Counted from the stretch's first letter, positions 5,339 to 26,792 are shown. The stretch is DNA of 64,000 nucleotides from a candidate division FCPU426 bacterium (GCA_963738405.1 CAVTWJ010000023.1:64001-128000); one strand, 5' to 3'. Notes: generated by a model from the letters alone, not told the origin. Numbers and translations are program-made.

Positions 5339-5374
5339 GTTTAATCCCGTCTATATCCGGGCACCGTCTGCAAC
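5339..5374 (-). repeat. Solitary degenerate CRISPR repeat in the cas6 5' UTR
   Basis: GTTTAATCCCGTCTATATCCGGGCACCGTCTGCAAC versus array repeat GTTTCAATCCCGTCTAAGTCCGGGCACTACAAGCAAC; hairpin stem and both ends conserved. Confidence 0.9.
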
Positions 5375-5382
5375 TTTATTTC

Positions 5383-5700: not shown

Positions 5701-5742
5701 TGCTTAATTCCTTTCTAATAACGAAGAACAATTAAAAATTAA

Positions 5743-6912: not shown

Positions 6913-6938
6913 GTTAGAACCTTTCTGATTAGCTGGTT

Positions 6939-9359: not shown

Positions 9360-9361
9360 GC

Positions 9362-10783: not shown

Positions 10784-12831
10784 TAGCGCCCCTCCAGACC
10801 CGAAGTTAAAAGGTTGTGCCAAACACGAAGAGCCTTCTTGGCTTTTTTCGGGTCATTCTGGATTGCCTGAATCAGTACCGCCTGGACATGTTTCCAACGG
10901 CCCCAGATCCTCCTCGACCTGGTATCTTTCTGGCGTTCCAGGAAATTGACTGCTTCCTGCCCGCCCTGTTCTTTGATACGCGCCGCGACCGCCGCGACCT
11001 GGGACGCGCTTAACCCGTCGTTCTTGGACATTTCACACCACCCCAAGGCCCATTCACCTGCCTTGTCGCTAGCCAGTGTCGTCAGGCTGGGTTCGGGCAA
11101 GTACAGTCCCTCCGCAATGCCCGGGTGGGGCAAGACGGCCCCGTAACCCTGGATGCGCCCATCCAGATCCCCCCCCGAGTCAACCCCCAGCCCCCGGTTA
11201 ATCTGATTCCAAAGGTTTTCCGGCTCCTTTTCCAGCACAAAAACGGACCCGGGCAGGAAAACCCGGCGAGCCGCCAAACGACCTGCGGGATCGATCCGAC
11301 CGCCCAAGCCGTAGCGGTTCCAGCCAAATCGGACACCGCAAGCAGCCATGTGGCCGACCTCGGCAACCCTCGCCGATTTTTTGGGGGAGGCAATCTTACC
11401 CCACCCGCTTTCCTCCACCAGACGGGCCAGGGCGGTCTCGGCGCATTTCACCTGCCAATCATCGGGAATGGCCGCGGGGGATTGAAGAACGAATACTTTT
11501 TTCTTCCAGCCCTTCAATTGCGTGGCCGGTTCTATGTTCCTTATCAACTTCAAGAGCCCCCCCCCACGAACGGTGCGGGCCTTGCCAAAGACAAATAGCG
11601 GGTTTTTTTGGACCAATGATTGGAGTTTTTCAGCGGCCTGTGGAGGTAGCGTGACCCAACCGGCGTAATTAAGCGGGGCCATCGCCTCGACTGTGAACAA
11701 GTTGCGCTTGTCCTTACCTTCCGGGTCGTAATGAACGGCATGAGCCGTGAGAATGCGAGGCATCTCACCCGACTTCCAGAGGAGGACTTTCCCTGAGGAA
11801 TCGCGAAGTAAGACACCGTCAGTGCCTTTTAAGGGGGAAGCCTTGGGAACCTGCGTCCAGTCATAGGGCTCGACCGCCGAATCGCGGAATTGTTGGTCTA
11901 TTTTGAGCTTGCTCATCCTGTGGCTCAATGAAACCCGCACCGGGTTCATCAGTTCCCCGTTACCCTCCTCTAGGAGGGTCGGTAGGAGGGGCCAGGCCCT
12001 GGTCCTGCGGTCCAAAATAGCGGCATGGGCTAGGGCCGAATCAGCTTGTGCTAACCGAGAAATAAGGGCGCCCAATACCGCCGAGGCAGGGATTCCCAAT
12101 CCGGTTCGCAAGATGTTGTTGCCCATATCAGGTGTTTCCGGGCAGCAAACCGGGTCCTCGGCCGAAAATGTAAGCCTCAATGTCACGGCCGGACCATCCG
12201 GTTCTTTGGCGGCAGGGGTTACCATGGGGTTTGGGGTTTCACCCGGCAATCCCTTTTCCATTTCCCTCGCCAGTTCCCGCAAAAAGGCTCCCGGGGTCCG
12301 CTTTTCGTCCGCAATTTTGACCAGACAGGAGCCGCTTCCACGGTTACGGTTACCGCCCACCGCTTCCATGGTCAATAGGGCCAGGGATACGCCAAGGGTA
12401 ACAACCGGCGATGCGCCTTCCGCAATCTCGATTTTCCCCATAAATTTTGTTCCGACGGCCACAGCTTCCGATGTTCTAAGCGTCTGGTTCACTGCCACCC
12501 CCAGTTCCCCCACGGCGGTCCTTGTGATCGGATGGACAAGACCTTGGGCCCCTTCGGGCAGGCGGGCATCGTGAACTTTCACCTGACCCTGATACCCTGA
12601 ATCCCCCTCCTGGCCTGGACGACCCAGAACCCGATTGGTCAGGGTCGGCCAATCCCGGCTGACGGCGATCCGGCCGAGGGTGTCCCTCAAAAGACCCTTG
12701 AGGTGGCTGCTTCGGACCACCGGGCGGTCCTGATGATCCCGTGCCACGATGTCGTTGACCGTTTCACCACCCTTCCCGCTGCCAATCTCTCCATCGCTTA
12801 ACAACTCGATCTCATATTGGATTGTTGTCAT
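10783..12831 (-). CDS. Cas7-Cas5-(Cas11) fusion, type III-Dv-like
   Basis: Cas7 motifs (SSHLKGLLRD, GGNRNRGSG), then Cas5/Csx10-like motifs (IPASAVLGAL, GKARTVRGGG, PGSVF, QGYG), then a helical C-terminus LSASQV resembling Cas11. Confidence 0.8.
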   Translation of the reverse strand: MTTIQYEIELLSDGEIGSGKGGETVNDIVARDHQDRPVVRSSHLKGLLRDTLGRIAVSRDWPTLTNRVLGRPGQEGDSGYQGQVKVHDARLPEGAQGLVHPITRTAVGELGVAVNQTLRTSEAVAVGTKFMGKIEIAEGASPVVTLGVSLALLTMEAVGGNRNRGSGSCLVKIADEKRTPGAFLRELAREMEKGLPGETPNPMVTPAAKEPDGPAVTLRLTFSAEDPVCCPETPDMGNNILRTGLGIPASAVLGALISRLAQADSALAHAAILDRRTRAWPLLPTLLEEGNGELMNPVRVSLSHRMSKLKIDQQFRDSAVEPYDWTQVPKASPLKGTDGVLLRDSSGKVLLWKSGEMPRILTAHAVHYDPEGKDKRNLFTVEAMAPLNYAGWVTLPPQAAEKLQSLVQKNPLFVFGKARTVRGGGLLKLIRNIEPATQLKGWKKKVFVLQSPAAIPDDWQVKCAETALARLVEESGWGKIASPKKSARVAEVGHMAACGVRFGWNRYGLGGRIDPAGRLAARRVFLPGSVFVLEKEPENLWNQINRGLGVDSGGDLDGRIQGYGAVLPHPGIAEGLYLPEPSLTTLASDKAGEWALGWCEMSKNDGLSASQVAAVAARIKEQGGQEAVNFLERQKDTRSRRIWGRWKHVQAVLIQAIQNDPKKAKKALRVWHNLLTSGLEGR

Positions 12832-14369
12832 GAGTTCACTTCCGTCACCCAGTTCATCCTTGAATCTTCTTCCAGTAGGAGTAGCGCATCTATCACGGGT
12901 GTGGTACGCACGTTATGCCCGTTTTTGACCGATTTTTTCCATTTGCCTCCGGGTTTTTGGGGGCTTTCACCCTCATCCAGGTCGTTACTCAAAACTTCCT
13001 GGTTCTTCGCCAAGCTCTTCGCGAAGATCTTTCGGTCAAAAAAACCGGCCCTCATCCCTTTCAGCACACGGTGGCGGACCGAACCGGGCACTTTGCTGTA
13101 TTCCTGGGCTAACCGAATGAGGTCTCTCAGATCCGCGACCGGATAAGGCCTTTCGGTCAGTTGGATCCTCTCGTTCTGTAGATCGGCGTCCTGAAAAACC
13201 AATTCACGCTGTCGGCGAGCATGGGGTGTGTCGACCAGCCCCTCGGTGACCGATTCCCAGTCCACAAAAGAGGGGGTCGGAAAAACTTTTTGTTCACGGC
13301 CACCGCCCTTGGCGCTCGCCAGAAGCAGCTCGGTATAGGAGATGGCGGTGCTTAGCGGCAGGCCAATCGGGGCGAAGAGAATCCCGGCCGAAAGGGTGAT
13401 GTGGGATCCGGTAGCGGGCCACAGGTCAATGCCCCCCTTTTTCGCAAGGGCTGCCAATTCGGTGCTTTTCTCCTCGAAAACCCTGCAGGCTTCCCTTACA
13501 AAAGTCATCGCGTAACCGACATGACAAAGAAGGATAATGTCGTCCCCGCCGACCACGAGAGGCCGGATAGGCAGGATTATCTCCCCCCCGTCGACATCGA
13601 AACCTTCCTTTAGAGCGCGGATTTCTTCAATAATTAAGTCGATACCCTTCCTGCATGCTTCACGGCTGCAGGTGTCCAGGTCGCGACTCATCCGCCGAAG
13701 CCAACCGGTGAAAACGTCCGCCCGGTCCCCTAATTTTTCCACGGCCTTTCGATGCTGGGTTCCAATGTCGTTCCCATCCATGGCAATCACCGCCCAGCGG
13801 TTTCGGCCACCTAGTCTCTGCAAGGCTATTTTTCCCGCTGGGGTCGATTTATCCACGTCGTGGAAAAAGCTGAATTTCAAACCTTCTCGGCCATGACCAT
13901 TAACCCCCCCCAGCAATTCATCCTCAAAATAACGGTCCATCCGGTCCCCTTTTTGCCAGACCCGTTTTTTAACGATGTCGCTGACGCCGTTATTGGCCGG
14001 GTAGAGCCCGCTATCGGCACAAGGTTTGCCTCCCAGTTCGATGCTGGAAGGTAGCCAGGGATAAGTTTGGTCCGCGCCGTGGATGGCGACCGTGAAGTCA
14101 TCCGAAACGCCGAAACAGATGGTTAAACCATCCCGGTGCGCGGCTTCTACCAACTTGCGTCGTACCCTTTCCACTGCCTGGTCATTGGTACACTTGTAAG
14201 CGCCTTTTCCGCCGCCTGAAAAGAGGTGCTCTCCTTCCGGATCATTTATGCCTGGCGCGGTCACCCTGTCGTAACGGTCAATCAGCGCGCTTGATCCGCA
14301 AATGTATTTAAGGCGTGGGATTGAAAAGATGAAAGATTGAATGCCTTTTAAGTCATAGCAAAGATACAT
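12828..14369 (-). CDS. cas10: Cas10, compact, no HD domain, intact GGDD palm
   Basis: YDLKGIQSFIF, FSGGG, IAMDGNDIG, LVVGGDDIILL, LSAGI, ELLLASAK. Confidence 0.93.
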   Translation of the reverse strand: MYLCYDLKGIQSFIFSIPRLKYICGSSALIDRYDRVTAPGINDPEGEHLFSGGGKGAYKCTNDQAVERVRRKLVEAAHRDGLTICFGVSDDFTVAIHGADQTYPWLPSSIELGGKPCADSGLYPANNGVSDIVKKRVWQKGDRMDRYFEDELLGGVNGHGREGLKFSFFHDVDKSTPAGKIALQRLGGRNRWAVIAMDGNDIGTQHRKAVEKLGDRADVFTGWLRRMSRDLDTCSREACRKGIDLIIEEIRALKEGFDVDGGEIILPIRPLVVGGDDIILLCHVGYAMTFVREACRVFEEKSTELAALAKKGGIDLWPATGSHITLSAGILFAPIGLPLSTAISYTELLLASAKGGGREQKVFPTPSFVDWESVTEGLVDTPHARRQRELVFQDADLQNERIQLTERPYPVADLRDLIRLAQEYSKVPGSVRHRVLKGMRAGFFDRKIFAKSLAKNQEVLSNDLDEGESPQKPGGKWKKSVKNGHNVRTTPVIDALLLLEEDSRMNWVTEVNS

Positions 14370-14425: not shown

Positions 14426-15601
14426 TCAAGACAGTAATCCTAATACCTTAATTGAAACCAACGTCCGATCAATCCCCAAAACCGCCTGGAGAGGATGCGC
14501 ACCTGAGCCCCGCCCCAGTTCGTTGACGATCAGCGCTGCTTTCGATGGGCCGAGTTGGGTGATGAGCCGTTTCCCAAGGCGGGACCGCGACGCCCCCCAC
14601 CAATTCGTCTCTAAAATCATGTCTGTATCAAATGGGCCCGTTAATAAATCATCATCGTTTTTGAAAATCCTGTAGGCAATCCTGCAAAACTCCAAATCCT
14701 TGGGTGTTAGCATAATTTTGATCGCATTCCCCGCGTTTGACTGCGCCTGATTGGTTAACCTACAGGGCTTTAACTGACAGGTCTCGCATGACTTAACATC
14801 CCGCGGACAAAGAATTCCATTTTTGCGCCACGCCAAAAGCGCCACCCAGAGGCTCTGTTTCGGGTCCAGGTCAAGCCGTTTCCCGTCCACTTCGATGTAA
14901 CCAGGGGCCTTTTCCAAGTTCACCGTCAAGCTGACCTGCTTCATGTTGAATTCCTCAAAAGCCGTCGTGAGCGAGGTTTTCAATAAATCGAGATGGATAT
15001 TCCTGAAAAAGTTATTGAGGCGAGGAAAAGGCACTTCAAAAAGATTAACCCATTTTATTTCGGCCTTCTTTTTGGGGTCAGGATACCACCCATTCGAAAG
15101 TTTCTTTTCCTTTCCCGGGTCCATGAGAACGTGGTAAAGAGTGTCCCCTTCCCTGGCGAAGGCGGACATACCAAGGGTCAGGTAAGCGGACATGGTTTTC
15201 CGCCCGCCCGCGAGGGAAGCTTGAAGCCCCACCGCCGGGTCTTTTGTGAATTCGTCCAAACGTTGGGCGATTTCCTCTTCCATGGCGGCGTTGGCCTCGC
15301 TGTCGCCAAGATCTTTTTTTATTTTCATTTTGGGGGGAATATGGATTTGAGATTCACCAAAAAGCGGGAAGGTTTTAGCCGGTAATTTCCAATCTTTCCA
15401 AAGCCTGGCAAAAGGGCCTTTCTTCATATCGATCAAGCCGGCTTCCAGAATTTTATTTTTACCTTCGCTGGTCGTGATCACATGAATTTCAGTAAGAATC
15501 ATTTTGTTTCTTACCACCAAAGCCCAAATCGCCTCGGTCAATACGGCCGGTGATTCCCCACCCGTCGCCAGAAAAATACTCTTTTTCTTATTCATAAACA
15601 C
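14426..15601 (-). CDS. NE0113/Csx14-family CARF protein with a Cys-rich and possibly wHTH C-terminus
   Basis: LATGGESPAVLTEAIWAL, HVITTSEG, SLAGGRKTMS, LYHVL; first gene of the cas operon. Confidence 0.8.
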   Translation of the reverse strand: MFMNKKKSIFLATGGESPAVLTEAIWALVVRNKMILTEIHVITTSEGKNKILEAGLIDMKKGPFARLWKDWKLPAKTFPLFGESQIHIPPKMKIKKDLGDSEANAAMEEEIAQRLDEFTKDPAVGLQASLAGGRKTMSAYLTLGMSAFAREGDTLYHVLMDPGKEKKLSNGWYPDPKKKAEIKWVNLFEVPFPRLNNFFRNIHLDLLKTSLTTAFEEFNMKQVSLTVNLEKAPGYIEVDGKRLDLDPKQSLWVALLAWRKNGILCPRDVKSCETCQLKPCRLTNQAQSNAGNAIKIMLTPKDLEFCRIAYRIFKNDDDLLTGPFDTDMILETNWWGASRSRLGKRLITQLGPSKAALIVNELGRGSGAHPLQAVLGIDRTLVSIKVLGLLS

Positions 15602-15761: not shown

Positions 15762-16430
15762 TTAACGTCCTCGTCCCGAGCTTCTAAATGAACAACCCAT
15801 CGGCATTCTCATGGGAGGAGGCGCCGAGTAGTACATCACCCGTGGGGCGGAATAAATGACCCTAGCCGGTTGGGGATTAGCGTATCGAACGTAAGCCCGC
15901 CGAATAACCCGCCTTGGCGGGGTTGGGAGATAGACCCGAACATAACGATGGTCAATTACGGGGGGGCGAACAATCGTTCTCCTTTGATGGTATTGGTAGG
16001 ACGGCCTGGTGAAATGCCGGATCGGGTTTGAGATATATCCTCCTGTCTGATGGGTGATCGCTACCACACTAGCTTGGGTATAGGATTGCGACGAATAAGG
16101 ATAAACCGAAGAAGCCATTTGGGCTGAACTAGGTTGATTCGCGTGTCCTACAACTACGTTCCGGGATGCCGAACGCGTGACATGATTTTCACCTTCTGCG
16201 GGTGGATTACTAACGCGATGGGAAAGGGCCTCTAGACCCAAGAGGATGATTCCCCCACCCATTGCCAAGGTGAAAAGGATCGGACCCCAGTTTCGCTGGG
16301 CGCGCGGAACCGGTCGGTAAGGCGCGGTAACTCCCTGAACCGTTCTATGGCTCGGCGAAGAGCCAACGGGATTGATGGTCCCTTGAACCCTGTCGAAAGT
16401 GAACTGATCATTCGTTACGAAGCGTTCCAT
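15762..16430 (-). CDS. Hypothetical single-pass membrane protein with a Pro/Arg/Tyr-rich tail
   Basis: Hydrophobic segment ILFTLAMGGGIILLGL; GGAGG RBS upstream; co-directional with the Clp gene. Confidence 0.6.
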   Translation of the reverse strand: MERFVTNDQFTFDRVQGTINPVGSSPSHRTVQGVTAPYRPVPRAQRNWGPILFTLAMGGGIILLGLEALSHRVSNPPAEGENHVTRSASRNVVVGHANQPSSAQMASSVYPYSSQSYTQASVVAITHQTGGYISNPIRHFTRPSYQYHQRRTIVRPPVIDHRYVRVYLPTPPRRVIRRAYVRYANPQPARVIYSAPRVMYYSAPPPMRMPMGCSFRSSGRGR

Positions 16431-16536
16431 TGGGCCTCCTTTCTTTTTTATCCTTATCCTTTAATTGAATACTACCAGTTCTTCGACATCTTAAAACTTT
16501 TGCAAAATTGCGCCCTCCTGAAAGCCTTCCTGGTGT

Positions 16537-18657
16537 TTACTCATCAGATATCACCAGAGAGAGCCCTACCATCGGCTCGATTCTTTTGAACACCACTTTT
16601 TTGCCCCGCGTCGCCATGGTCTGTTCCGCCAGTTTGTCCAGGATCTCCTTTTGGAGCAGGCGGTTCATGGGCCTGGCCCCGAACTCGCTGGAGAAGCCTT
16701 GTTCGGCCAGCCAATCGACCGCTTCCGGAGTCACCTCCATTTCCACCCGCCCCTTCAAGCGTTCCTGGTACTCCCGGATCCTCATGCGGACAATTTCGCC
16801 GAGGGCTTCCCTGGGCAGAGGTTTGAAAAGTATGATCTCATCCATTCGATTCAGGAACTCGGGACGGAAAAACCGCTTCAGTTCACCGGTCAACCCTTCC
16901 CCCGACGGACGACCATCCCGGCTAGACGCTCCAATATTGCTCGTCATGATGATGACCGTATTCTTGAAATCCACTGATTTGCCCGCACCGTCGGTCAAAC
17001 GTCCATCGCCCAGCACCTGCAAAAAGAGGTTGAAGACATCCGAATGCGCTTTTTCCACCTCATCTAACAGCAGAACCGCGAAAGGCCTGCGGCGGACCGC
17101 CTCGGTCAGCTGGCCGCCCTCGCCATAGCCGAGGTAAGAGGGGGGCGCCCCGACGAGCCGCAAAACGGAATGCTTTTCGCTGTATTCGCTCATATCCAGC
17201 CGGACCATGGCCTTTTCCCCCCCGAAGAAACAATCGGCGACCGCCTTGGCCAATTCGCTCTTTCCCACGCCCGTGGGGCCGGTGAACAAAAGGGAAGCGA
17301 TCGGCCTTTTGGGGTCCGCTAACCCAGTAAGCCCGCGTTGAATGGCCCGGGCGACCACATTCACAGCCCCATCCTGGCCTCGGACTTTTTCCCGCAGTTG
17401 CTCGGCTATATCCGCCAATTTGAATTCTCCCGACCCATTAACAATGGAAAGAGGTATGCCTGTTTTTTCTGAAACCACCTCGGCGATATCAGTTGCAGTG
17501 ACCCTTGCGCTTATATTTTTTGCAGATCGAATATCCGCCCGAAGGCTGACCCTGGTCGCGGCTTCATCCAACAGGTCGATGGCTTTATCCGGCAGGAAAC
17601 GGTCCCCAATGAAACGGGTGGATAGGCTGACTGCGGCTTCCAGGACATCTTCCCCTATTGAAACGCCATGATGAGTTTCATAACTTTCTTTAAGACCTCT
17701 CAATATTTGGATACTGTCCGCAGCGTTCGGTTCCCCCACCCAGACCTTTTGGAACCGACGCGCCAATGCCGGGTCTTTTTCGATATGCTTGTGGTATTCG
17801 TCCAATGTGGTCGCCCCAATGCACCTCAAACCCCGTGCCAAAGCGGGTTTCAATATGTCGGAAACACTCGAACTGGCGTTCAATGCCCTGCCAAAAAGAG
17901 CGTGAAGCTCATCGATGAATAGGATGCTAGATGGCCCCGATTGCGCTATTTCGTTCAGAAGATTTTTAATCCTTTCTTCCATCTCACCCTGCCAAACAGC
18001 CCCACCCATGATTTTCACAACGTCAACCGCCATCACTTTTGTCCCCCAGAGAGGCCTTGGGGCCTGGCCTGAAGCAATGAGTTGGGCTAAACCTTCCGCG
18101 ATGGCCGTTTTACCGACACCGGGCTCGCCTACCAACACGGGGTTATTTTTGGTTCGACGCGAAAGAATGCGAATAACGTTAGCCAATTCTACCTGTCGGC
18201 CGATCATGGGTTCCAAATTGCCCTGGCGCGCTTCTTCCGTAAGATTCCTTAAAAAACTGGAGGCGGCAACTGGGGATGGACCAGACCGGGGCCCTCGGGG
18301 CTCGGGCCTAACTGGATTTCTAAACTCTTGGAGTGCACAGTCCAACAAAGGATCTTCGGGATAATGGCCGTTAATCAGCGTTTCCCAAAGGCAGTTCAGT
18401 TCGACGGTGCCATTAGGCGCCGAGGATTGCATGGCGCGGATGGCATCCTGGGATACGTGAAGCGTTTCAATTGGAAGACCCCCTCCGTTCGCAAACCTTA
18501 AGTTTGCTTTTAATCTAACAACTTTATCGGATGGCCTAACGATTTCACCGTTGTCAGCGATAGCAAGAACCAAATGCCTGGATTTCAAAAATGGGTCAGG
18601 ACCGGCGTGCCGGGCGGCCGTTAATAGCAGGTTTTCAGGAATCTCAATGGGTTGCAT
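16537..18657 (-). CDS. Clp/Hsp100 class I AAA+ ATPase (two NBDs), divergent N-domain, no M-domain, no IGF loop
   Basis: KNNPVLVGEPGVGKT, LFIDELH, IGATTLDEY, RFLPDKAIDLLDEA, GPTGVGKS, LDMSEY, LLDEVEKAH, FRPEFLNR, GARP. Confidence 0.93.
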   Translation of the reverse strand: MQPIEIPENLLLTAARHAGPDPFLKSRHLVLAIADNGEIVRPSDKVVRLKANLRFANGGGLPIETLHVSQDAIRAMQSSAPNGTVELNCLWETLINGHYPEDPLLDCALQEFRNPVRPEPRGPRSGPSPVAASSFLRNLTEEARQGNLEPMIGRQVELANVIRILSRRTKNNPVLVGEPGVGKTAIAEGLAQLIASGQAPRPLWGTKVMAVDVVKIMGGAVWQGEMEERIKNLLNEIAQSGPSSILFIDELHALFGRALNASSSVSDILKPALARGLRCIGATTLDEYHKHIEKDPALARRFQKVWVGEPNAADSIQILRGLKESYETHHGVSIGEDVLEAAVSLSTRFIGDRFLPDKAIDLLDEAATRVSLRADIRSAKNISARVTATDIAEVVSEKTGIPLSIVNGSGEFKLADIAEQLREKVRGQDGAVNVVARAIQRGLTGLADPKRPIASLLFTGPTGVGKSELAKAVADCFFGGEKAMVRLDMSEYSEKHSVLRLVGAPPSYLGYGEGGQLTEAVRRRPFAVLLLDEVEKAHSDVFNLFLQVLGDGRLTDGAGKSVDFKNTVIIMTSNIGASSRDGRPSGEGLTGELKRFFRPEFLNRMDEIILFKPLPREALGEIVRMRIREYQERLKGRVEMEVTPEAVDWLAEQGFSSEFGARPMNRLLQKEILDKLAEQTMATRGKKVVFKRIEPMVGLSLVISDE

Positions 18658-19897
18658 GTTGAGCCCGCCTTATCTTTTTCCCGCAACACTCGCAGGAATC
18701 CAGGGGATCGGTTTTGACCCCATACCACCTAAAAGGCGCCAACCCCTGTTTGAAGCCGGCAGCGCATAAGGGTGTCATCTTTCCTTCATAAGGGCCTTCG
18801 CGTCGGGTTGCCTGGAAAAAGAAACCATGTCCGTCGGCGAAATCTTCCATCCATCCCTCATAGCCACTGGGTTTTCCGTAAGTCAGGGCGATGAGGGCTA
18901 AACGGGCCATGAAGGCAGGCACGGGCGCGATATCCACGGCCAGTCCGGCCCAAATGGCCGTTTCCTTGTCAGCATAAGCGGGCAGGTTTCGATCCGCCGA
19001 GTGTAACGATGAGATTTCTTCGCTTTCATTGGAGAAAAATCCGCCGCCATAAAGACAGGCGAAACAGGCTTTTTGATGCCCCGGCCAAAACCAAAAAACA
19101 TCCCCGCCCACGCCCCTTTGAAGAACCCTTCCAATAACGAGAGGCTTGTTCCCAGTAACGCAGGCCTGATTGGCTTGGAACCGGGTTGGGTTGTTGTCCG
19201 TACCTACGACGCACAAGGAGGATTGTTGGACTAAGGCCGCGAGATTCATTTCGCGCATATCGCCGTGTAGGGTTTGCACATCAACCCATGGGTTTTTTTG
19301 TTGAAGCATAGACTTGACCGCATCAACCTTCCGGCGGCCTAATTGATTCAATCCAGCCGTATGGCGAAATAGATTCTCAAGGGCAATATGGTCTCCATCC
19401 ACCAGTATGAAGCGCATCACACCCGATTGAACTAGCAGTTGCGCTGTTTGGGAACCAAGTGAACCGCAACCCAATATCAAAACGGTTGAATCGGCCAAAT
19501 CGTCTACTTCCAACAAACCCTTTTGTCTGTCAAAAAGGAGTTCCCTTTTAGGCAATTCACTGAGAACCAAATCAGTTTCCTCGTCGTCACGGCAGTGGTA
19601 AACATGGGGATTTTCACCCTTATGGTGTTTTAGAATCACGAAACCCTCTGTGGGCGCAAACTGCTTCGCACGGGCCAACAACCTGGTAGGAATTTCCATT
19701 CCGTCCGGAACCGCGACTAAGGGGCTCGGAAGGCCAACCGACCGCCGGGCTTCCTGGCTGGACGGATCGGGGAAAACGTGCCATACCCGGCCTTCATCAA
19801 GAACCCGGCTACCCGCAGGGAAAAAACAAGGCTCGGGGGGCAAACGATCCAACCCCGGCCAAAGAAAAGCCTTGTTGGGGATTGAAGAAATCTTCAT
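18644..19897 (-). CDS. ThiF/E1-like adenylating enzyme with an N-terminal extension
   Basis: LGCGSLGS, LVDGD...ENLFRH, GRRKVDA, GTDN, CFAC...CECC Zn-binding pairs. Confidence 0.92.
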   Translation of the reverse strand: MKISSIPNKAFLWPGLDRLPPEPCFFPAGSRVLDEGRVWHVFPDPSSQEARRSVGLPSPLVAVPDGMEIPTRLLARAKQFAPTEGFVILKHHKGENPHVYHCRDDEETDLVLSELPKRELLFDRQKGLLEVDDLADSTVLILGCGSLGSQTAQLLVQSGVMRFILVDGDHIALENLFRHTAGLNQLGRRKVDAVKSMLQQKNPWVDVQTLHGDMREMNLAALVQQSSLCVVGTDNNPTRFQANQACVTGNKPLVIGRVLQRGVGGDVFWFWPGHQKACFACLYGGGFFSNESEEISSLHSADRNLPAYADKETAIWAGLAVDIAPVPAFMARLALIALTYGKPSGYEGWMEDFADGHGFFFQATRREGPYEGKMTPLCAAGFKQGLAPFRWYGVKTDPLDSCECCGKKIRRAQHATH

Positions 19898-20106
19898 TCG
19901 GTCACCTGGTTCTTTCCCCCAAAGCCCCGGGCGGCGATCTGCTGGATCGCCAAGTTTTGGGTTTCACGGTTGGGTTCGCCCATCCGGAGTTCACCCGTGG
20001 CGGGATCCATCAAGATGGCTTGGCCGGGGGTTTTACGAGGCAGGGGGGGAGCCGTAACCTCGGGCTGGGAGTTTCTTAACCTGTTGAATTCATCCATCAG
20101 ACCCAT
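19894..20106 (-). CDS. Small 70-aa peptide, candidate conjugated modifier (RGFGG-KNQVTE end)
   Basis: GGAGG RBS; stop overlaps the E1 start; lies between JAB and E1 genes. Confidence 0.7.
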   Translation of the reverse strand: MGLMDEFNRLRNSQPEVTAPPLPRKTPGQAILMDPATGELRMGEPNRETQNLAIQQIAARGFGGKNQVTE

Positions 20107-20133
20107 AAAGCACCTCCAGTTATTTTTCGGTTA

Positions 20134-20880
20134 TTAAACCGACCAGCCTTTTTCTGAATCGTTCAGCGCTCTTCTTGATTCGATATTACCAACTATTTTT
20201 AAACCTACCGGATTTGCAATTTTACATTCCGTTAAATTCTTCCCTTGGCCTATCGATTGTGTTCTGGCGTTCCCTTCCGCAGGCCGAAAATCCTTTGACG
20301 GTGGCTCTGAACACTTTTTTTCGAGGCCGGAATTATTCCTTGAAGCAGGAATGATTTTGATGGGAACCGGAAAATACTCGCCCTTAGGTAAAAACAGTGT
20401 CGCAGTCAAAACCAGTTTGGGTTTAAACGTTTTTGAGATGGAAGCAACAACGGCCATGAGCGGAAGTCCGGTTGATTGAGCGGTTGATTCCATCGTTGAA
20501 ATATCATGGCCGCTCACTGTTGGCAGACCCAAAGAATGGTGGGAATGCCATTGGCCCATATAGGCAAAACCCTGCAAACCATTCAGTTCGGCATTATGAA
20601 TTTCATAAGCAGGATCTTGTGTAAAGAAAGCGACATGCTTCACGGCTTTAGGGCCTGGGCCGGTTATCCGGGATATTAAGAACCATTTCCCCAGGTACAA
20701 CTTTCCGTAGAGGCCGCCCCCCGTTTCGTTTCTGGGGTTGGCAAAAGTTTCTCTTTCGATTTCTTTGTGGGCCGATTCCCTTATAAACAGACGTAAATGA
20801 GTCACGCCCGTCGTTTTGAAAGAAGGTTTTCTTTTGGCTTTGGGTTTGAACAGTTTTATCCAGAACATTACACGCCCCAT
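20134..20880 (-). CDS. JAB/MPN+ metallo-isopeptidase
   Basis: ETGGGLYG, GPGP, GQWHSHH...PTVSGHD (JAMM E...HxH...S..D). Confidence 0.9.
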   Translation of the reverse strand: MGRVMFWIKLFKPKAKRKPSFKTTGVTHLRLFIRESAHKEIERETFANPRNETGGGLYGKLYLGKWFLISRITGPGPKAVKHVAFFTQDPAYEIHNAELNGLQGFAYMGQWHSHHSLGLPTVSGHDISTMESTAQSTGLPLMAVVASISKTFKPKLVLTATLFLPKGEYFPVPIKIIPASRNNSGLEKKCSEPPSKDFRPAEGNARTQSIGQGKNLTECKIANPVGLKIVGNIESRRALNDSEKGWSV

Positions 20881-21329
20881 TCATTAAAAACTTGTTGGAT
20901 CGATTGTCCGGTTCTGAGATGCACGATGAAAGCTTCGGACCATAGCCGGGTTTTTACACACAGGTTGTATATGCTGTCGTTCGGTTTCCAGTCGTGGATC
21001 GTCACACAGAGCCTTAGCCTATTTTTACGGTTTGGCACAAGTCCAAGGACATGAAACGAAGCGTTAGCGCTTACAAACTGATCCCCTTGCCGATCAATGA
21101 CCGGATTAGGCTCATCAACAAGGACAAAGGGTTCAATGGAGCTTTCCTCTGGAAAATCGATGGTGTACCTGAACAAAAAACGCTCATTCGTCGGGATATT
21201 GATCTTAAACACGATAATTTCATTCCTGTCCCGAGATTCAGTTTCAACTCTCGCGTCCTGGAACCCATGAGCCCGTAACATGTTAAGTTCGAAGTCAGCC
21301 CTAATCAGGCGCTCTTGGGTGTAAGCCAT
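20868..21329 (-). CDS. Prokaryotic E2/UBC-like protein
   Basis: Pattern IDFPE..P.V, FHVL....LCV...WKPNDSIYNL resembles the UBC H(P)N...G.IC...W.P signature with the catalytic Cys position filled; operon context with E1 and JAB. Confidence 0.7.
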   Translation of the reverse strand: MAYTQERLIRADFELNMLRAHGFQDARVETESRDRNEIIVFKINIPTNERFLFRYTIDFPEESSIEPFVLVDEPNPVIDRQGDQFVSANASFHVLGLVPNRKNRLRLCVTIHDWKPNDSIYNLCVKTRLWSEAFIVHLRTGQSIQQVFNEWGV

Positions 21330-21967: not shown

Positions 21968-22930
21968 CTAAAGAACAGCTCGAAGTTCCGCAAACCGAGC
22001 CAGCACATCCCTCCAATGCGGGTATGGGGCGTAACAAAGAAGTCGGCATTGCTCCTCGTACTCAGCACCAATGACCGTTGCCAATTCCGCAGGTGGAAAA
22101 AGAGCATCGCTAAGCGAAAAACGCATGTCTTCGGGATAGAAATAGCTCTTGGGGAAGGCCGTGCGGCTGATATGGTCGTAATCCGTTTTGATGGTGCCGT
22201 ATTCCTTTGACCAAAGCATGGCGATGACTTCAGGCTGAGACGCCAGTTGGAAAAGATCGTAATAGTGTCGCGCATAACTGCCAATTGGACGCCGGTCGCG
22301 TTTCAACAGCTCCACCTTACTGTGGATGGCAAACATTTTCTCAACAAACGTCCGCCTGAAATGAAGCAACCGGAAGGGAAATCCACCCTCATCCTCCGCT
22401 CCCAAAGACGGACCTTTCTCCTTCAGAAACTGGCCGAGATAGGATTGAAGATTCACGATTGTTGTGGGTTCACGCCCGCTGGCCGTACCGGCCTCCACAA
22501 GAACACGATTGGCGACTTCCCCAGAACCACCGAAGCGCTGCGTATAGGAGAACCTGTCACTACGGCCAAAACCGCCAATCGTTTGACTCTCCTTTTCGAT
22601 GAACGTCAGCGCAGGATGGGCACCAATGGCGTCCCGGAGTTTCTTGAGTTCCCGGTCAATCGCCCGTTTAACCAACGCAGGTTGAAAAGCGGCAGGGTCA
22701 AGAAAAAGGTCTATGTCTTCCGAAAATCGCTGGATCAAATTCCAGCCTTTGAGCAGGCTGGTGCCGCCCTTGAAGATGACTTTGTCCCCTGCCGTGGCCG
22801 CAATAATGCGCAGGGCTTCAGTGACGTAATAGTCTTTCTCGATGATGGCCGGACGCAATCCTTGGGCTCGGAAATGTTCCGCCGCCCGGATAATCGCCTG
22901 TTCGAAATCAGGGTTTTCATACAGTCTCAC
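21968..22930 (-). CDS. AbiEii-family nucleotidyltransferase toxin (GTG start at 22930 likely)
   Basis: IEKDYYVT, FKGGTSL, RFSEDIDL, RTFVEK, RHYYDL. Confidence 0.92.
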   Translation of the reverse strand: MRLYENPDFEQAIIRAAEHFRAQGLRPAIIEKDYYVTEALRIIAATAGDKVIFKGGTSLLKGWNLIQRFSEDIDLFLDPAAFQPALVKRAIDRELKKLRDAIGAHPALTFIEKESQTIGGFGRSDRFSYTQRFGGSGEVANRVLVEAGTASGREPTTIVNLQSYLGQFLKEKGPSLGAEDEGGFPFRLLHFRRTFVEKMFAIHSKVELLKRDRRPIGSYARHYYDLFQLASQPEVIAMLWSKEYGTIKTDYDHISRTAFPKSYFYPEDMRFSLSDALFPPAELATVIGAEYEEQCRLLCYAPYPHWRDVLARFAELRAVL

Positions 22931-22931
22931 G

Positions 22932-23678
22932 TCAACGACGCTCCTTTGCCTGCCATTCGGAAGCAAACTTTAAACTAGAAAAAATTCCAAAGTCGAATCT
23001 AGAGAATGGGTTGAGGGATTCTCGTAAACGGCGCAACACTTTCGGATTTTTTCCAAGCTGTTTCCCCGCCGCACCCAATATCGCCCTAACCCTCGGTGGT
23101 TCGGAGTCCGCCACACTGAGCAAACGCTCAAAGCACCCCTTTTGGGATAACAAATCCATGGTTCGGCTGATGGTTTCGGCAGGGGACATTTCACTCGATT
23201 TCCCCCCCTGGCGCAGAAAATCCAGAAGCGCGGCTTCCTTTTCCGCAAGGTTTCCCCATGCTTCCGGTCTGCGGGTATGAATGACTGTATTCTTCCCAAT
23301 AAGCTTGCGGGGAAGGCTTGAGGCGCTTGTGGCGATCTCGCTTTCCTTAGGGTTCTGGGTTGTGAACCCCAAGAGATTCGCGGCTGCAATCCCTGAAGGA
23401 AACATCGTCTTTCGCTTCGAAGCAAGCATCTGGATTAAAGCCGGATTTGGACGGCTTTTACCAAAGTTGGTTTGCCGTGTCCGGTAATAGACACCTTTGC
23501 TAAGCCGATCAATCATCCCGGCGCGCGTAAGCCGTGAGAGAGCCTGGGCAACTGCTGCAAATGGAAAATCCCGAAAATCCTCCAAACGCCATAATCGTTC
23601 GCCGCCATTTTCGACCCGTTGGCGGACAAGCCCGGAAATTTTGGTTGGATTGGAAGGCGTTTTAAGGATCGTGGACAT
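22932..23678 (-). CDS. AbiEi-like antitoxin / wHTH regulator (ATG at 23678 likely)
   Basis: AVAQALSRL...RLSKGVYY, SGIAAANLLGFTTQNP; directly upstream of AbiEii. Confidence 0.85.
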   Translation of the reverse strand: MSTILKTPSNPTKISGLVRQRVENGGERLWRLEDFRDFPFAAVAQALSRLTRAGMIDRLSKGVYYRTRQTNFGKSRPNPALIQMLASKRKTMFPSGIAAANLLGFTTQNPKESEIATSASSLPRKLIGKNTVIHTRRPEAWGNLAEKEAALLDFLRQGGKSSEMSPAETISRTMDLLSQKGCFERLLSVADSEPPRVRAILGAAGKQLGKNPKVLRRLRESLNPFSRFDFGIFSSLKFASEWQAKERR

Positions 23679-23708
23679 ATTGATAATATCGGGCCAAGGC
23701 AACTTTAC

Positions 23709-23736
23709 GTCAAGTTTTTTTGCTGTAAAACTTGAC
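23709..23736 (-). promoter_or_regulatory. Inverted-repeat operator overlapping a putative -35 of the AbiE promoter
   Basis: GTCAAGTTTT-8 nt-AAAACTTGAC; minus-strand TTGACG followed 17-19 nt later by GATATT/TATTAT. AbiEi autorepression at promoter inverted repeats is established. Confidence 0.65.
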
Positions 23737-23788
23737 ACTTATCAATTAACCCCCTTTTAGAGCCACCTATGCTCAACCTCATCAAGGT

Positions 23789-24613
23789 TTACTTCCCTTC
23801 ATCTACCAACGGGTGATTCAACTGGTGCCAGATCCGTTTGAACGGAAGGGACACGGCCTTCTCATAATCTGATACAAACCATCGGGATCGTTTTCGTTCA
23901 TCGATTCGAGAGCGAAGGATATTGATCATTCTTTTTGCATTTTCCGGATTCGCCGAAACAACGAGCCGAAGTGCATCAGGAAAAGATTCATCTAGGTATT
24001 CAATCATTCTTCTAATTTTCCCTTCTGGGTTTTGAACATGCTCGAATTCCAATGCAAAACCGTATCTCTTCCCTTCCAAATCGGCCTCGAAATACCCATC
24101 AGGAGTTCTACGCCCCTTACTTTGGATATTGACCCAATTAGAACGCCATTTTCCCTTGTCTAATTCCCCCGCCAAAAATGTCTTTTTAACTTCCTGAGTG
24201 ATACCACCCCGCATTTCAAAGTCTGAAAGCCAAAACACCCTTTTAAGTTCAGTATTCGCCTCAAACGCGATTCTTATGGTTTGAACAAGCAAGTCGTGTT
24301 TTCTTTCGTATGGATTAATCTTTACAGGATAATTCACGCTTCGTACAAGAATCTTGCCCATTGCGTCTAAGGCCTTGATGGCACCACCCGTCAGGTAATA
24401 CATAGAATCCTGAAAAGTGGTTCCTTCCGCCTTGGTCACTTCCAAGAACCCTTTTTTCAGATATTGGTTTCTAAGAACATGGCAGGCCATTCGGTAGGTT
24501 CGGGGTTGGATGAACCTTTTGTGGAATAACTCGGGAATGGTGAACTTATTGGAATGAATCCAACCTAAATGCGCAGCTTCTTCTTCCGTTATTAAGAAAT
24601 TCGGCTTCATCAT
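23789..24613 (-). CDS. Replication-relaxation family protein
   Basis: N-terminal wHTH-like region, KHDLLV, RTPDGYF, FALEFE; adjacent to a coupling protein. Confidence 0.7.
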   Translation of the reverse strand: MMKPNFLITEEEAAHLGWIHSNKFTIPELFHKRFIQPRTYRMACHVLRNQYLKKGFLEVTKAEGTTFQDSMYYLTGGAIKALDAMGKILVRSVNYPVKINPYERKHDLLVQTIRIAFEANTELKRVFWLSDFEMRGGITQEVKKTFLAGELDKGKWRSNWVNIQSKGRRTPDGYFEADLEGKRYGFALEFEHVQNPEGKIRRMIEYLDESFPDALRLVVSANPENAKRMINILRSRIDERKRSRWFVSDYEKAVSLPFKRIWHQLNHPLVDEGK

Positions 24614-24618
24614 TTGCT

Positions 24619-26445
24619 TTAACCCTGTTTCCCATGCTCATTGTGCATAGTTAATTCAATTTCCAGTTTTTCGCCCACTGGCGCTTCACCCTTTTTCCGC
24701 TGTTTTGGTTCTTTAGGCACAACAGGAATCTCGATCTTATTGAACTCATTTTTCTTCAAGTGGTTATTTCGGATAGGAACGCAACCCACATAATCGAATT
24801 CCCTCGGAGGAGGTTTGACTTCTTTGAGCTTCATTTTGAAAACCTTCGGGCCTGAGACATAAACGATCCTGCACACCGCTTCCCCACGTTTCATTCCCCT
24901 CAAGTAATTAGGATGAATAATAAACTCCTCATCCTGTTTTTCGGTCCGTCCCCTAGGCTGAGAGATACGGGTGTCATATGAATAAACGTCTTTCTTTGTG
25001 ACTTTGGTCCCGAAAATCGATGCGAAGAAGTCCACCGTGTCTTTCTCAGTGATGTTCATCACGATTTTGTGGTTGGTGTTGGTGAGAATGTCATCCTTGA
25101 ATTCCTGGCTGACGGCCCCCAACTGGCCCAAGCTGTGGTGGGCTAAAAAAAAGCAAACATTTGCTTCGCGCCCTAAGGAAATAAGGTCATTGAGCCCCGG
25201 ATAGGCGGCGGTGTAGAACTCGTCCAAAAAGACGAAAAAGGGCCTTTCCGGCTTCTCAATAAGCCTCCGCCCTATAACCCCCGCCAAGTCAGTTAGGGCC
25301 GAAATAATGACCGGTTTGGAGTCCTCCTGGTTCACAAGTGAAGAGGTTCCAAATAGGAATATCTGTTGTTTCTCAACCACATCCCTCATCTTGATATCCG
25401 GGTTCAGGGTGTTGATAAGGGGTGACCACTCACGGGTGGTGAAACGTGCCAATTTGCTAGTTAGGCCTGAAAGATTAAGCTCCCTGTCCTTCTCCGACAT
25501 ATTGACCCACTTTTCCAGGAAGTATTTCCCCGAGACGGTGTCCTCGTGTTTCCGAGCCAAGACCTTTATCGAATCGAACGATCTGATTTCGTTTGAGATA
25601 AGGTTCTGGTAATCCATCCGGGTAACGTGCTTGAACTCCAAGAAAAGAAGGTTGGTAAGGTTGCTCAAAACGTCGCTGGCTTGGTCCCGATAATATTCCT
25701 GGGTCACAGGGCCGTAAAAGATCGACTTCATGAGGCCATTGAAGACCTCGTCTGGCTTATCCTTGAAATCCGGGTTGTAAGTCTGGCTCCTTTTCACATC
25801 TGCCAAATCAAAATACTTAAGGTCATGGAGCCGTCCATATTTCTGGGCGTAATAGGGAATGTGTTTGTTGTAATTGGATTTGGCGTCGAAAACGAACATC
25901 CCCAAACCGTTCCTGATCCCCTGTTCAATCATGTGGTTGAAAATGTTTGTTTTTCCCATGCCGGAAGATCCGATGACTTCCGTGTGGTACTTGAGCAGTT
26001 CAGCAGGAATGAAAAACTTGTTTTCCGCATCTAGGTATAAAGAGAATTTTCCGCCTTCTTGGCGGGGCGACTCGCCCGGATGCTCTGGGATATGTCTCAT
26101 GAAAAAATGAATAAAATAAATGCAGAAACCTATCAGGATGGAAAGCCCCATCACCACATCCCCCGTGAACCCCTCGGTTCCCAGAAACACCCCGAAAAAG
26201 TCATGGCAAAAAGCTAGGGCAATAACGGCAGGGGCCAAGGCTAAGAGGTGGGTCATTCGGACATGCTTCTCAAACATGTAGAGAAAACCCACGGAGAGGG
26301 CCGCAAGAGTGTCAAAGGGGGTAACGGATGGGGATATGACCCCTAAGACTTCAAGGGTGAATTTAAGGCCCGAATAGACCCCAAATCCAGCTAAGACAGG
26401 AGGGGTGTGCTTCTCAACTGATTTGAAAAAATTCCAGGTACTCAT
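24619..26445 (-). CDS. VirD4/TraD-like type IV coupling protein
   Basis: N-terminal TM helices, HTEVIGSSGMGKT, FDAK, FLDEF, GREANV, HSLGQL, RGEA. Confidence 0.88.
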   Translation of the reverse strand: MSTWNFFKSVEKHTPPVLAGFGVYSGLKFTLEVLGVISPSVTPFDTLAALSVGFLYMFEKHVRMTHLLALAPAVIALAFCHDFFGVFLGTEGFTGDVVMGLSILIGFCIYFIHFFMRHIPEHPGESPRQEGGKFSLYLDAENKFFIPAELLKYHTEVIGSSGMGKTNIFNHMIEQGIRNGLGMFVFDAKSNYNKHIPYYAQKYGRLHDLKYFDLADVKRSQTYNPDFKDKPDEVFNGLMKSIFYGPVTQEYYRDQASDVLSNLTNLLFLEFKHVTRMDYQNLISNEIRSFDSIKVLARKHEDTVSGKYFLEKWVNMSEKDRELNLSGLTSKLARFTTREWSPLINTLNPDIKMRDVVEKQQIFLFGTSSLVNQEDSKPVIISALTDLAGVIGRRLIEKPERPFFVFLDEFYTAAYPGLNDLISLGREANVCFFLAHHSLGQLGAVSQEFKDDILTNTNHKIVMNITEKDTVDFFASIFGTKVTKKDVYSYDTRISQPRGRTEKQDEEFIIHPNYLRGMKRGEAVCRIVYVSGPKVFKMKLKEVKPPPREFDYVGCVPIRNNHLKKNEFNKIEIPVVPKEPKQRKKGEAPVGEKLEIELTMHNEHGKQG

Positions 26446-26714
26446 GGCGGTATATCTTCTTCAAGGGAGAATGGAACACTAAAAACCCCTTAACTTTTAT
26501 TACCGCCACTGCGCGTTGACAAGTTCATATTTGCAGGAATTAGGAAAAATCTTCCTGTCATATACGTGTCATTCGTTTTGCTTTTTAGTGATTTTTTACG
26601 ATCATTGGTGATCACTGATGATCAGTTGAAAAAAATAGCCTTTGCCCTTCGGGATGCGAAATCCCTTACAGGCAAAGGCTTTTAAAATGCGCTGGGAACA
26701 ATAATTTTTTGAAA

Positions 26715-26792
26715 TGGCGGGGTTGACGGGGCTCGAACCCGCGACCTCCTGCGTGACAGGCAGGCGCTCTAACCAAACTGAGCTACAACCCC
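26715..26792 (-). tRNA. tRNA-Asp (GTC)
   Basis: GGGGTTGTAGCTCAGTTTGGTTAGAGCGCCTGCCTGTCACGCAGGAGGTCGCGGGTTCGAGCCCCGTCAACCCCGCCA; cloverleaf with encoded CCA. Confidence 0.98.

Follow-up and report, generated by a model that had tools for sequence, protein, structure and literature searches.

Several bacterial systems with ubiquitin-like conjugation components have been described, namely operon classes 6a-6e, Bil, Bub, the type II modules of cyclic oligonucleotide-based antiphage signalling systems (CBASS), of pyrimidine cyclase systems (Pycsar) and of metallo-β-lactamase (MBL) systems, and FtsH-ternary systems with a ubiquitin-like protein (Ubl) (Chambers et al. 2023, preprint, 10.1101/2023.09.26.559546; Ledvina et al. 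2022, preprint, 10.1101/2022.03.31.486616; Kaur et al. 2020, PMC7159879; Ye et al. 2024, PMC11601596). According to these reports, the described classes carry beta-grasp Ubls or CD-NTase-type substrates, and none of them is presented with a Clp gene or a free peptide. Here we analyse an operon at positions 15762-21329 of a 64,000-nt stretch of DNA from a candidate division FCPU426 bacterium (GCA_963738405.1 CAVTWJ010000023.1:64001-128000). This whole stretch is referred to as the window, and positions are counted from its first letter. The six genes of the operon encode, in this order, an E2-like protein, a JAB peptidase, a small peptide, an E1, a Clp-type AAA+ ATPase and a membrane protein. 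We tentatively read them as a Cap2/Cap3-related E1-E2-JAB cassette, CBASS-type and non-canonical, that has its own peptide modifier without a beta-grasp fold and that, within a mobile defence island, has been coupled to a membrane protein and a dedicated Hsp100 unfoldase.

A first-pass annotation, made from the sequence alone, had stated that the operon lacks a CD-NTase and a beta-grasp Ubl, and had not recognised its gene combination from described systems. Both statements agree with our searches. Pfam, PADLOC and NCBIfam gave no CD-NTase or Ubl match for any of the six proteins, and PADLOC returned models for CBASS accessory JAB, E1-E2 and ClpB-like proteins only. Full-text literature searches, limited to the main text of papers in one collection, found no description of this architecture.

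With type II CBASS (Cap2/Cap3, CdnG-E2) the operon shares a ThiF-type E1, a CBASS-type UBC-like E2 and a Cap3-type JAB, as well as the character of a modular add-on in defence islands. In both cases the likely E1 substrate is a disordered tail rather than a beta-grasp domain, and one relative of our locus (L006, see below) is joined to a CD-NTase and a TIR-SAVED protein. Unlike in the Cap2 fusion, which has a catalytic Cys in both of its domains, E2 and E1 are separate genes here, and the E2 carries an invariant Cys whereas the E1 has no conserved catalytic one. Also in contrast to type II CBASS, the operon has neither a CD-NTase (SMODS) nor a cyclic-nucleotide effector (SAVED, STING, patatin); the Card1 and CARF proteins nearby belong to a type III CRISPR locus. 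Its putative substrate is a free peptide of 64-70 aa that forms a family of its own, and its partners are the Clp ATPase and the membrane protein.

Bil and Bub resemble our locus in combining an E1, an E2 and a peptidase in defence or mobile contexts, and in modifiers that end with a conserved C-terminal residue followed by variable ones. The JAB of Bub cleaves a fused precursor (PMC11601596). However, the modifiers of Bil and Bub are beta-grasp proteins, and the Bil E1 consists of tandem IAD-AAD and a CYS domain. In Bub, the E2 is of the Ser type and the protease BubE belongs to DUF6527. The window operon shares none of these features: no DUF6527 match was found in it with Pfam, its E1 has a single ThiF domain and its E2-like protein has an invariant Cys.

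Two better-known pathways offer likenesses of another kind. The actinobacterial modifier Pup is small (~60-70 aa) and largely disordered, carries Gly-Gly near its C-terminus and undergoes C-terminal processing, and an AAA+ protein (Mpa/ARC) is encoded alongside. The window locus recalls this in the size and probable disorder of its peptide, in the GG near the end, in the proposed trimming of the C-terminus and in the adjacent AAA+ gene. The enzymes are different: E1, E2 and JAB stand where Pup relies on the carboxylate-amine ligases PafA/Dop, and the two systems are not similar in sequence. No match to PafA/Dop, Mpa/ARC or the 20S proteasome is seen for any of the six proteins, and a link to ClpP is likewise missing, the D2 docking loop being deleted. 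In the ubiquitin/Cdc48-p97 pathway, E1 and E2 attach a tag, a JAB-type protease erases it and an AAA+ unfoldase reads it without itself degrading the substrate. The likeness of the window operon to this pathway is conceptual; the AAA+ clade differs, the putative tag lacks a ubiquitin fold, adaptors are missing and the reading step is a proposal.

The conjugation enzymes

The relatives of the operon were collected through its E1. A word-indexed search with the E1 returned 11 relatives at E ≤1e-3, one of them 73% identical and the others at most 38%. Scanning genome contigs with the single sequence gave nothing, whereas the alignment-based scan found 9 loci in genomes and 24 in metagenomes. These 33 related loci include near-duplicates (L008/L017, L024/L025, L034/L035, L023/L036, L015/L016, L019/L022 and L007/L012). 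Locus L014, a 3.3-kb contig with an E1 73% identical to that of the window, has E2, JAB, peptide, E1 and Clp in the same order as the window.

The E1 is a single ThiF domain (Pfam ThiF, 8.5e-33), preceded by ~120 lineage-specific residues, and matches PADLOC models of CBASS E1-E2 proteins with E-values down to 1.2e-30. A profile of ten family members, compared with the PDB, matched ThiF (3e-31), UBA5, MoeB, MccB and Cap2 (7e-16). The nucleotide-binding and adenylation residues F122, R124, the GxGxxG motif, D167, D169, N175, R178, K190 and D234 are invariant, as are two CxxC zinc motifs. Intact as they are, these residues show the E1 to be, by sequence, an adenylation-competent enzyme. Outside the zinc motifs, no Cys is conserved in alignments of 10 and of 29 sequences. 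In the latter alignment a Tyr in the crossover-loop region (Tyr308) is invariant. The E1s of Bub use a crossover-loop tyrosine in place of Cys (PMC11601596). Tyr308 may thus be reminiscent of the Tyr-oxyester E1 of Bub, which we take as a lead only.

The 153-aa E2-like protein matched no family in Pfam, PADLOC or NCBIfam, and a word-indexed search with it returned only itself. Among 99 genomes of the phylum it is encoded in one, the source genome. No match for it was found on plasmids, and viral contigs contained no relatives of the E1 or E2 alignments. Via the E1 neighbourhoods, 24 homologous E2-like open reading frames (ORFs) were recovered in 23 loci. In an alignment of 20 sequences P67, P74, H93, C108 and W114 are invariant. 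An AlphaFold2 (AF2) model based on the alignment reached a predicted local distance difference test score (pLDDT) of 84 and a predicted template modelling score (pTM) of 0.81. The top 50 Foldseek matches of this model were nearly all E2/UBC proteins at weak E-values, none reaching 1e-3, and the best was CBASS CdnG-E2 (E 0.034). The nearest ESM Atlas clusters carry PF26395 E2-CBASS (score 0.95; 24 of 30 matches). The predicted structure and these matches place the protein in the UBC/E2 fold, nearest to CBASS E2, with a conserved Cys following a conserved His; H93 and C108 are candidates for the catalytic position of the fold.

The JAB peptidase matches PADLOC JAB (1.9e-12) and the JAB part of the NCBIfam model 6A-MBL cap2_3 (1.4e-10). 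Its match to Pfam Prok-JAB (0.0099) falls under the family cut-off, and a PDB sequence search found no match. The metal motif is intact, as seen in a motif scan and by reading of the translation (Table 1). Using tblastn with the window protein, JAB was detected in 21 of the 33 related loci, and it is present in every related locus that is complete enough to show one. Together with the AAA+ matches given below, these family assignments uphold the E1, E2, JAB and AAA+ identities given in the first-pass annotation, and the lack of a UBC fold in the 153-aa protein, which would have contradicted it, is not seen.

A different use of such an E1 would be in a microcin C-like pathway for a ribosomally synthesized and post-translationally modified peptide: the small peptide would receive a chemical modification at its C-terminus from the E1-like enzyme and be exported. 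The peptide-modifying enzymes MccB and PaaA are indeed among the structural and profile matches of the E1, and the peptide gene overlaps the E1 start. We consider this pathway highly improbable in view of the accompanying JAB and of an E2 with invariant Cys, of the lack of a transporter, an immunity gene and a C-terminal Asn, and of the defence and conflict loci in which the cassette is found.

A family of small peptides

The 70-aa peptide has a single relative, at 88% identity, among 1.84 billion representatives searched with phmmer. It belongs to no Pfam family and no Ubl family, and the ESM Atlas held no look-alike (0.78). Profiles built from small ORFs beside E1 genes nevertheless revealed a family: a homologous small protein lies beside the E1 or is fused to it in 27 of the 33 related loci, 19 of which fall into subfamily 1 and 8 into subfamily 2. 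Five further stretches outside these loci also contain peptide homologues. The best-conserved motif of the family is internal (h-x-[FY]-D-P-x-T-x-x-h). Subfamily 1 (19 loci, E <1e-16) is characterized by an N-terminal helix, K-L-x-Y-D-P-x-T-K-x-I, D-P-D and I-T-P-E-D. Subfamily 2 comprises the peptides of the window, L014, L013, L021, L027, L031, L011 and L019/L022 at E <1e-12, to which L050 and L056 were added later. Its profile matches subfamily 1 members at E-values of 4e-4 to 0.03.

In the subfamily 2 alignment D34, A58, G61 and F62 are invariant, the last three within a C-terminal motif A-R-x-G-F-[F/G]-[A/G/S]. What follows the motif differs from locus to locus. It is the end of the protein in L021 and L027 (GFFA) and in L031 (GFF), and it precedes unrelated short tails in the window (6 residues), L014, L013, L050 and L056. 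In L011 the motif is followed by a second peptide unit and then by a Gly/Ala-rich hydrophobic domain, and in L019/L022 by the E1 itself. Tandem copies occur in L011 and L028, and in-frame fusions of the peptide to the E1 N-terminus in L007, L020, L023/L036, L034/L035, L055, L019/L022, P0008 and P0010. Over 64 codons, the peptide genes of the window and L014 show 37 identical codons, 21 synonymous and 6 non-synonymous differences; judged by these codons, the gene is under purifying selection. Straight after G64 the similarity between the two peptides is lost entirely. This divergence, next to the conserved first 64 codons, is the pattern of a modifier precursor trimmed by JAB. JAB also releases the fused modifier in BubAB (PMC11601596). 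The C-terminal sequences of the family are thus compatible with a JAB-processed modifier, and the suggestion in the first-pass annotation that the short peptide serves as a modifier is backed by a conserved family with processing-type C-termini.

The fold of the peptide was approached through the natural peptide-E1 fusion of L019. In its AF2 model, residues 1-106 have pLDDT <50 and the E1 core >90. In the peptide part, secondary structure is limited to two helices, the second of them short, and between them a hairpin at the DPxTG motif, so no beta-grasp fold is predicted for this homologue of the window peptide, its low pLDDT not being proof of disorder.

Peptide-like elements were also seen in neighbouring proteins. 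The 274-aa ORF directly after the E1 of L011 (L011:8895-9719) contains a tandem pair of peptide units, both with the GFF motif at their end, and then the Gly/Ala-rich domain, which is glycine-zipper-like; the ORF resembles a polyprotein or a pro-toxin in need of cleavage. A 207-aa partner protein in L010 (L010:3083-3706) ends in ...YDPATRSVI...AFA, with a peptide-like DPxTG-type motif at its C-terminus, and small proteins with an N-terminal transmembrane (TM) segment in L021 (L021:4680-5024) and L027 (L027:3567-3890) end in ...LNPATGEWENG and ...LNPVTGKWE, respectively; the motifs in these L010, L021 and L027 partners were judged by eye and are not significant by profile.

The Clp unfoldase and the membrane protein

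The AAA+ protein is a Clp-type Hsp100 with Pfam matches to AAA_2 (1.3e-60), AAA_lid_9, AAA and ClpB_D2-small, and with PDB matches to ClpC (6e-178) and ClpB (2e-176). Both Walker A and both Walker B motifs are present. NCBIfam pup_AAA matched at 2.4e-6, over the generic AAA core alone. The protein was aligned with the only other Hsp100 of the genome, an 828-aa ClpC-like paralogue, relative to which ~55 residues are missing, leaving it without a middle domain. The coiled-coil middle domain of the ClpB/Hsp104 disaggregases is thus absent, and the NCBIfam ClpB profile matches in two stretches with 743 bits against a cut-off of 1232. In ClpA/ClpC-type partners of ClpP, an [LIV]-G-[FL] tripeptide in D2 forms the docking loop for the protease. 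This loop is deleted where the paralogue has LGF, and the sole [ILVM]G[FL] of the protein is VGL at residue 697 in the C-terminal tail. Because the docking loop is deleted, we read the protein as a ClpP-independent unfoldase.

The N-terminal ~130 residues show just a faint Clp_N-like stretch when compared with the paralogue, and no PDB match was found for them. Among 5.8 billion clusters, this N-domain occurs in one other protein, 99% identical and located on a 2.7-kb contig; the Clp copy of L014 is too short for the search. No similarity was found between the N-domain and the N-region of the AAA+ protein of L021. In the window and also in L014, the E1 stop and the Clp start share an overlap of 14 nt; the overlap of these two genes that the first-pass annotation had pointed out is kept in the relative. 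By the searches run, the locus is rare, being represented by the window, the 99% identical copy of its Clp and L014.

Of the defence ATPases, DolB of Dodola and PDC-M37B of the PADLOC candidate PDC-M37 are similar to the D2 ring of the Clp protein (6.7e-26 and 5.9e-38, respectively), and the Clp gene likewise lies in a defence island. These profiles (~375-518 positions) cover only the D2 half, and DolA was not matched. Unlike the Dodola protein, the window Clp is a full two-ring Hsp100 with a private N-domain and overlaps an E1 gene.

The membrane protein belongs to no family in Pfam, PADLOC or NCBIfam. Its hydrophobicity peaks at residue 51 (Kyte-Doolittle, 19-residue window, 2.04), and its C-terminal 152 aa are rich in Arg, Ser, Pro and Tyr. 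The gene is preceded by a good Shine-Dalgarno-like sequence, AAGGAGG. Using tblastn, the protein was found in none of the 33 related loci; the contig of L014 ends before the corresponding position. Near its N-terminus (region of residues 4-13, 16391-16420) it reads FTFDRVQGTI, which resembles the DPxTG motif of the peptide and is a lead only. It is not significant with either peptide profile (E 0.02-0.4, single sequence), and the regular expression that describes it was set up post hoc, its third match, in the E1, being the ordinary ThiF N-terminal motif.

Partner genes in related loci

In the related loci the cassette is followed by several kinds of partner. A P-loop protein of ~900-1000 aa lies directly after the E1 in 18 of the 33 loci; that of L034 matches PADLOC mad8 (1e-20) and HerA (2e-11). 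The usual companions of this NTPase are a ~175-aa protein (15 loci), a WD40 protein (12) and a Ser/Thr kinase (11; mad6, 3.7e-39). The region L034:5847-16334 contains such a larger system, consisting of JAB, an E2-like protein, the peptide (free or fused to E1), E1, the HerA/mad8-like NTPase, the ~175-aa acidic protein, a ~213-aa protein, a WD40 protein and the mad6-like kinase. Systems of this type are also present in L005, L007/L012, L008/L017, L018, L020, L023/L036, L024, L028 and L029, and no description of them was found in literature searches.

A CBASS-like set of split genes is found at L006:5749-11003, with a JAB protein carrying a helix-turn-helix (HTH) domain, E2, a 60-aa peptide of subfamily 1, E1, a CD-NTase and a TIR-SAVED protein; PADLOC matched the cyclase at 1e-77 and TIR-SAVED at 8e-49. 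The peptide is kept in this locus despite the presence of the CD-NTase. In L021 and L027 the cassette is followed by a small TM protein and then by an AAA+ protein (PF00004 and AAA_lid_6) that is unrelated to Clp; the two AAA+ proteins are orthologous, with 51% identity. The remaining loci have assorted or truncated contexts, including CHAT-TPR, cNMP-binding, Csm6-like CARF and metallophosphatase proteins. Two further stretches, L052 and L054 (G175:C40 and G335:C237), carry an E2-family gene whose neighbour is Ser/Thr kinase-like; in these stretches tblastn detected neither an E1 nor a JAB.

In a tree of the E1 proteins, the window and L014 lie on a long branch within a clade that also contains L010, L021, L027, L031, L015-16, L019-22 and L011-13 (98/95 support). 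This clade is separate from the 19-row clade of the NTPase-type loci.

The variety of partners bears on what the cassette does. It may control its own partners in the way Cap2/Cap3 prime or restrain a CD-NTase, so that the peptide or its cleavage by JAB switches on the Clp protein and/or the membrane protein as toxic effectors of abortive infection, acting by unregulated unfolding or membrane damage. The cassette is modular, with partners that include the HerA/mad8-like NTPase (18 of 33), WD40 proteins (12), kinases (11), SMODS with TIR-SAVED (1), another AAA+ with a TM protein (2) and Clp (1), and Cap2/Cap3-type modules are likewise modular (PMC11601596). The two peptide units fused ahead of a Gly/Ala-rich membrane domain in L011, and the peptide-like module that ends the 207-aa protein of L010, imply that partner proteins themselves can carry the peptide module; with the modularity, they suggest that the cassette may control its own effectors. 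ATPases with a ClpB domain are part of known defence systems (PMC11514479), among them the DolB and PDC-M37B proteins matched above. On the other hand, the window peptide is free-standing, the family motif is missing from the C-termini of both the Clp and the membrane protein, and the toxicity of both is only supposed. We regard such regulation as possible, if rather unlikely.

A proposed pathway

The reading that we tentatively favour, a conjugation cassette coupled to an unfoldase, can be put as a series of steps. JAB would cut the 6-residue tail from the peptide, which would then end at Gly64, as the C-termini of the family suggest. The E1, whose adenylation residues are intact, would adenylate this C-terminus. 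The peptide would be passed to Cys108 of the E2, either straight from the adenylate or via an oxyester on the invariant crossover-loop Tyr308; we propose these two routes because the E1 has no conserved catalytic Cys. The E2 would ligate the peptide to lysines of target proteins. The Clp ATPase might read the tag by its cassette-specific N-domain and unfold or extract the tagged proteins, by a logic similar to Pup/Mpa or ubiquitin/p97; this step is weakly supported, and unfolding without degradation is proposed because the Clp protein lacks the ClpP-docking loop. For the membrane protein, roles as anchor, target or effector are conceivable. Judged by the genomic context alone, the pathway probably serves to protect the cell from phages or other mobile elements. 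The supposed tag-and-extract role of Clp is helped only by the 14-nt overlap that recurs in L014, by the cassette-specific N-domain and by the AAA+ and membrane protein pairs of the independent L021/L027 lineage, with which the E1 tree groups the window.

Several findings weigh against this pathway. The first-pass annotation would be contradicted by homologous E1/E2 operons that rarely carry Clp, and Clp is indeed rare among them. By tblastn, Clp is present in 1 of the 33 related loci, and this one, L014, is a close relative. Among 401 further Myxococcota genomes the E2 family was found in 6, with Clp in 0 of 8 stretches. The co-occurrence of Clp and cassette is not independently replicated, because the sole other locus is the close relative L014. 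The membrane gene is tied to the operon by strand and proximity only. Since a catalytic Cys is missing from the E1, it is uncertain that the cascade runs as a classical thioester relay. The AF2 model of the L019 fusion leaves the peptide part undocked at pLDDT <50 and is uninformative on binding either way. Subfamily 1 has no conserved C-terminal residue, and several of its members are permanently fused ahead of the E1. Even in subfamily 2, the predicted C-terminal residue of most members is Ala or Phe and not Gly.

Alternatively, the Clp and membrane genes may be mere neighbours in a defence island, for example accessories of the type III CRISPR-Cas system or an independent Dodola-like unit. 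That Clp is missing from 32 of the 33 related loci, that a CARF gene and cas10 lie directly downstream and that a 106-nt gap precedes the membrane gene all agree with this explanation. It does not account well for the overlap of Clp and E1 in both instances, nor for an N-domain found otherwise only in the 99% copy, and an analogous pair of AAA+ and TM genes follows the cassette in L021/L027. The chance that the two genes are unrelated neighbours seems slim to us.

The points on the peptide concern a separate question, whether the small protein is a modifier at all. It may instead be an E1 subunit or an N-terminal accessory domain, such as an element for docking of the E2 or the substrate or a pseudo-substrate, with the C-terminus of another protein as the true adenylation substrate. 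The permanent fusion of subfamily 1 peptides ahead of the E1 suits an E1 subunit as well as a modifier, and the in-frame fusions in several loci, the variable end of subfamily 1 and the internal position of the best-conserved motif would be in line with a subunit. In subfamily 2, however, natural stops, the ends of tandem units and fusion junctions all fall at the C-terminal motif. Further points against a subunit are the tandem copies in L011 and L028 and the presence of a JAB wherever the locus is complete enough (21 of 33), and fusions of Ubl and enzyme that are cleaved by JAB are known from Bub. A role as E1 subunit is accordingly improbable in our view, and we keep to a JAB-processed modifier as the favoured, tentative reading.

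Operon layout and genomic surroundings

The features of the locus are listed in Table 1. As the first-pass annotation had it, six minus-strand genes follow one another, and their order and coordinates are correct; the distance to the sixth gene, given there as 107 bp, is 106 nt. The other spacings are -13 nt (E2-like/JAB), +27 (JAB/peptide), -4 (peptide/E1) and -14 (E1/Clp). Shine-Dalgarno-like sequences lie ahead of the E2-like, peptide and membrane genes. A scan for promoters and terminators was uninformative: where 6.0 promoter-like sites were expected it showed 1, and where 10.6 terminator-like sites were expected it showed 14.

Table 1. Features of the operon and its surroundings (positions in the window)
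Feature	Position	Strand or location	Details
E2-like protein, 153 aa	20868-21329	-	UBC fold (predicted); candidate catalytic Cys108, His93, Trp114
JAB/JAMM metallopeptidase, 248 aa	20134-20880	-	Glu52 and H112-x-H114-x8-S123-x2-D126
Peptide gene, 70 aa	19894-20106	-	proposed mature modifier residues 1-64 = 19915-20106, end GFGG
Proposed trimmed 6-residue peptide tail	19897-19914	-	C-terminal to G64
ThiF/MoeB-type E1, 417 aa	18644-19897	-	GxGxxG at 143, TDN at 233, CxxC at 278 and 402, Tyr308
ClpC/ClpB-type double AAA+ (Hsp100), 706 aa	16537-18657	-	Walker A at 177 and 460, Walker B at 245 and 528
Single-pass membrane protein, 222 aa	15762-16430	-	TM ~aa 48-70 (16221-16289)
CARF protein	14426-15601	downstream of operon	PADLOC CARF5 1.1e-49
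Type III CRISPR-Cas locus	222-14369	downstream of operon	
CRISPR array	222-1564		~17 repeats, 72-bp period
AbiEii/AbiEi, family-less 274-aa protein, TraD/TraG-type coupling protein, tRNA-Asp	21968-26792	upstream of operon	
tRNA-Asp	26715-26792		

The type III cas operon encodes a protein with a Cas10 palm domain, RAMPs, a Csm3/Cas7-like fusion, Card1, Cas6, Cas1, Cas2 and a reverse transcriptase (RT). The RT adjoins Cas1-Cas2, the fused RAMP has 806 aa (Csm3/Cas7-IIID-like) and the Cas10-like protein is short (513 aa). On the other side of the operon, the genes from AbiEii/AbiEi to the tRNA are the likely border of an integrated mobile island. Just past the tRNA-Asp, positions 27129-32702 encode an 1857-aa protein with Big_13, fibronectin type III and CarboxypepD_reg domains. 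The defence-island setting claimed for the operon is thus borne out by AbiEii/AbiEi, TraD/TraG, the type III cas operon and the CARF gene around it, and the operon looks like part of a mobile defence island.

Implications

The broader claim would be that the peptide family is a free-standing, disordered modifier that is moved by E1 and E2 and made by JAB from tails, tandems and fusions, and that it is read here by a private Hsp100; it would then be the first non-beta-grasp tag of a ubiquitin-type cascade. We consider this claim, taken as a whole, doubtful. In the E1/E2/JAB modules of bacterial immunity known so far, what is conjugated is a beta-grasp Ubl (Bil, Bub) or a CD-NTase tail (type II CBASS). 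If the claim is true, a conserved unfolded peptide of 55-70 residues would be a third kind of modifier; its family includes single genes, tandem units and fusions in need of cleavage. The cassette would then be a portable control unit with at least four partner modules, namely Clp, another AAA+ protein, the HerA-like NTPase with WD40 protein and kinase, and the CD-NTase with TIR-SAVED. It would also mean that bacteria have built a tag-and-unfold immune pathway, similar to ubiquitin/p97 or Pup/Mpa, from Cap2/Cap3-type parts. The pairing with a ClpP-independent Hsp100 offers a directly testable tie between protein tagging and unfolding in prokaryotic defence, and an E1 with an invariant crossover-loop Tyr but no catalytic Cys bears on how widespread the thioester-free chemistry of the Bub E1s is. 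Of all findings, the peptide family and the modular Cap2/Cap3-like cassette to which it belongs have the greatest value, rather than the Clp protein, the coupling to which is lineage-specific.

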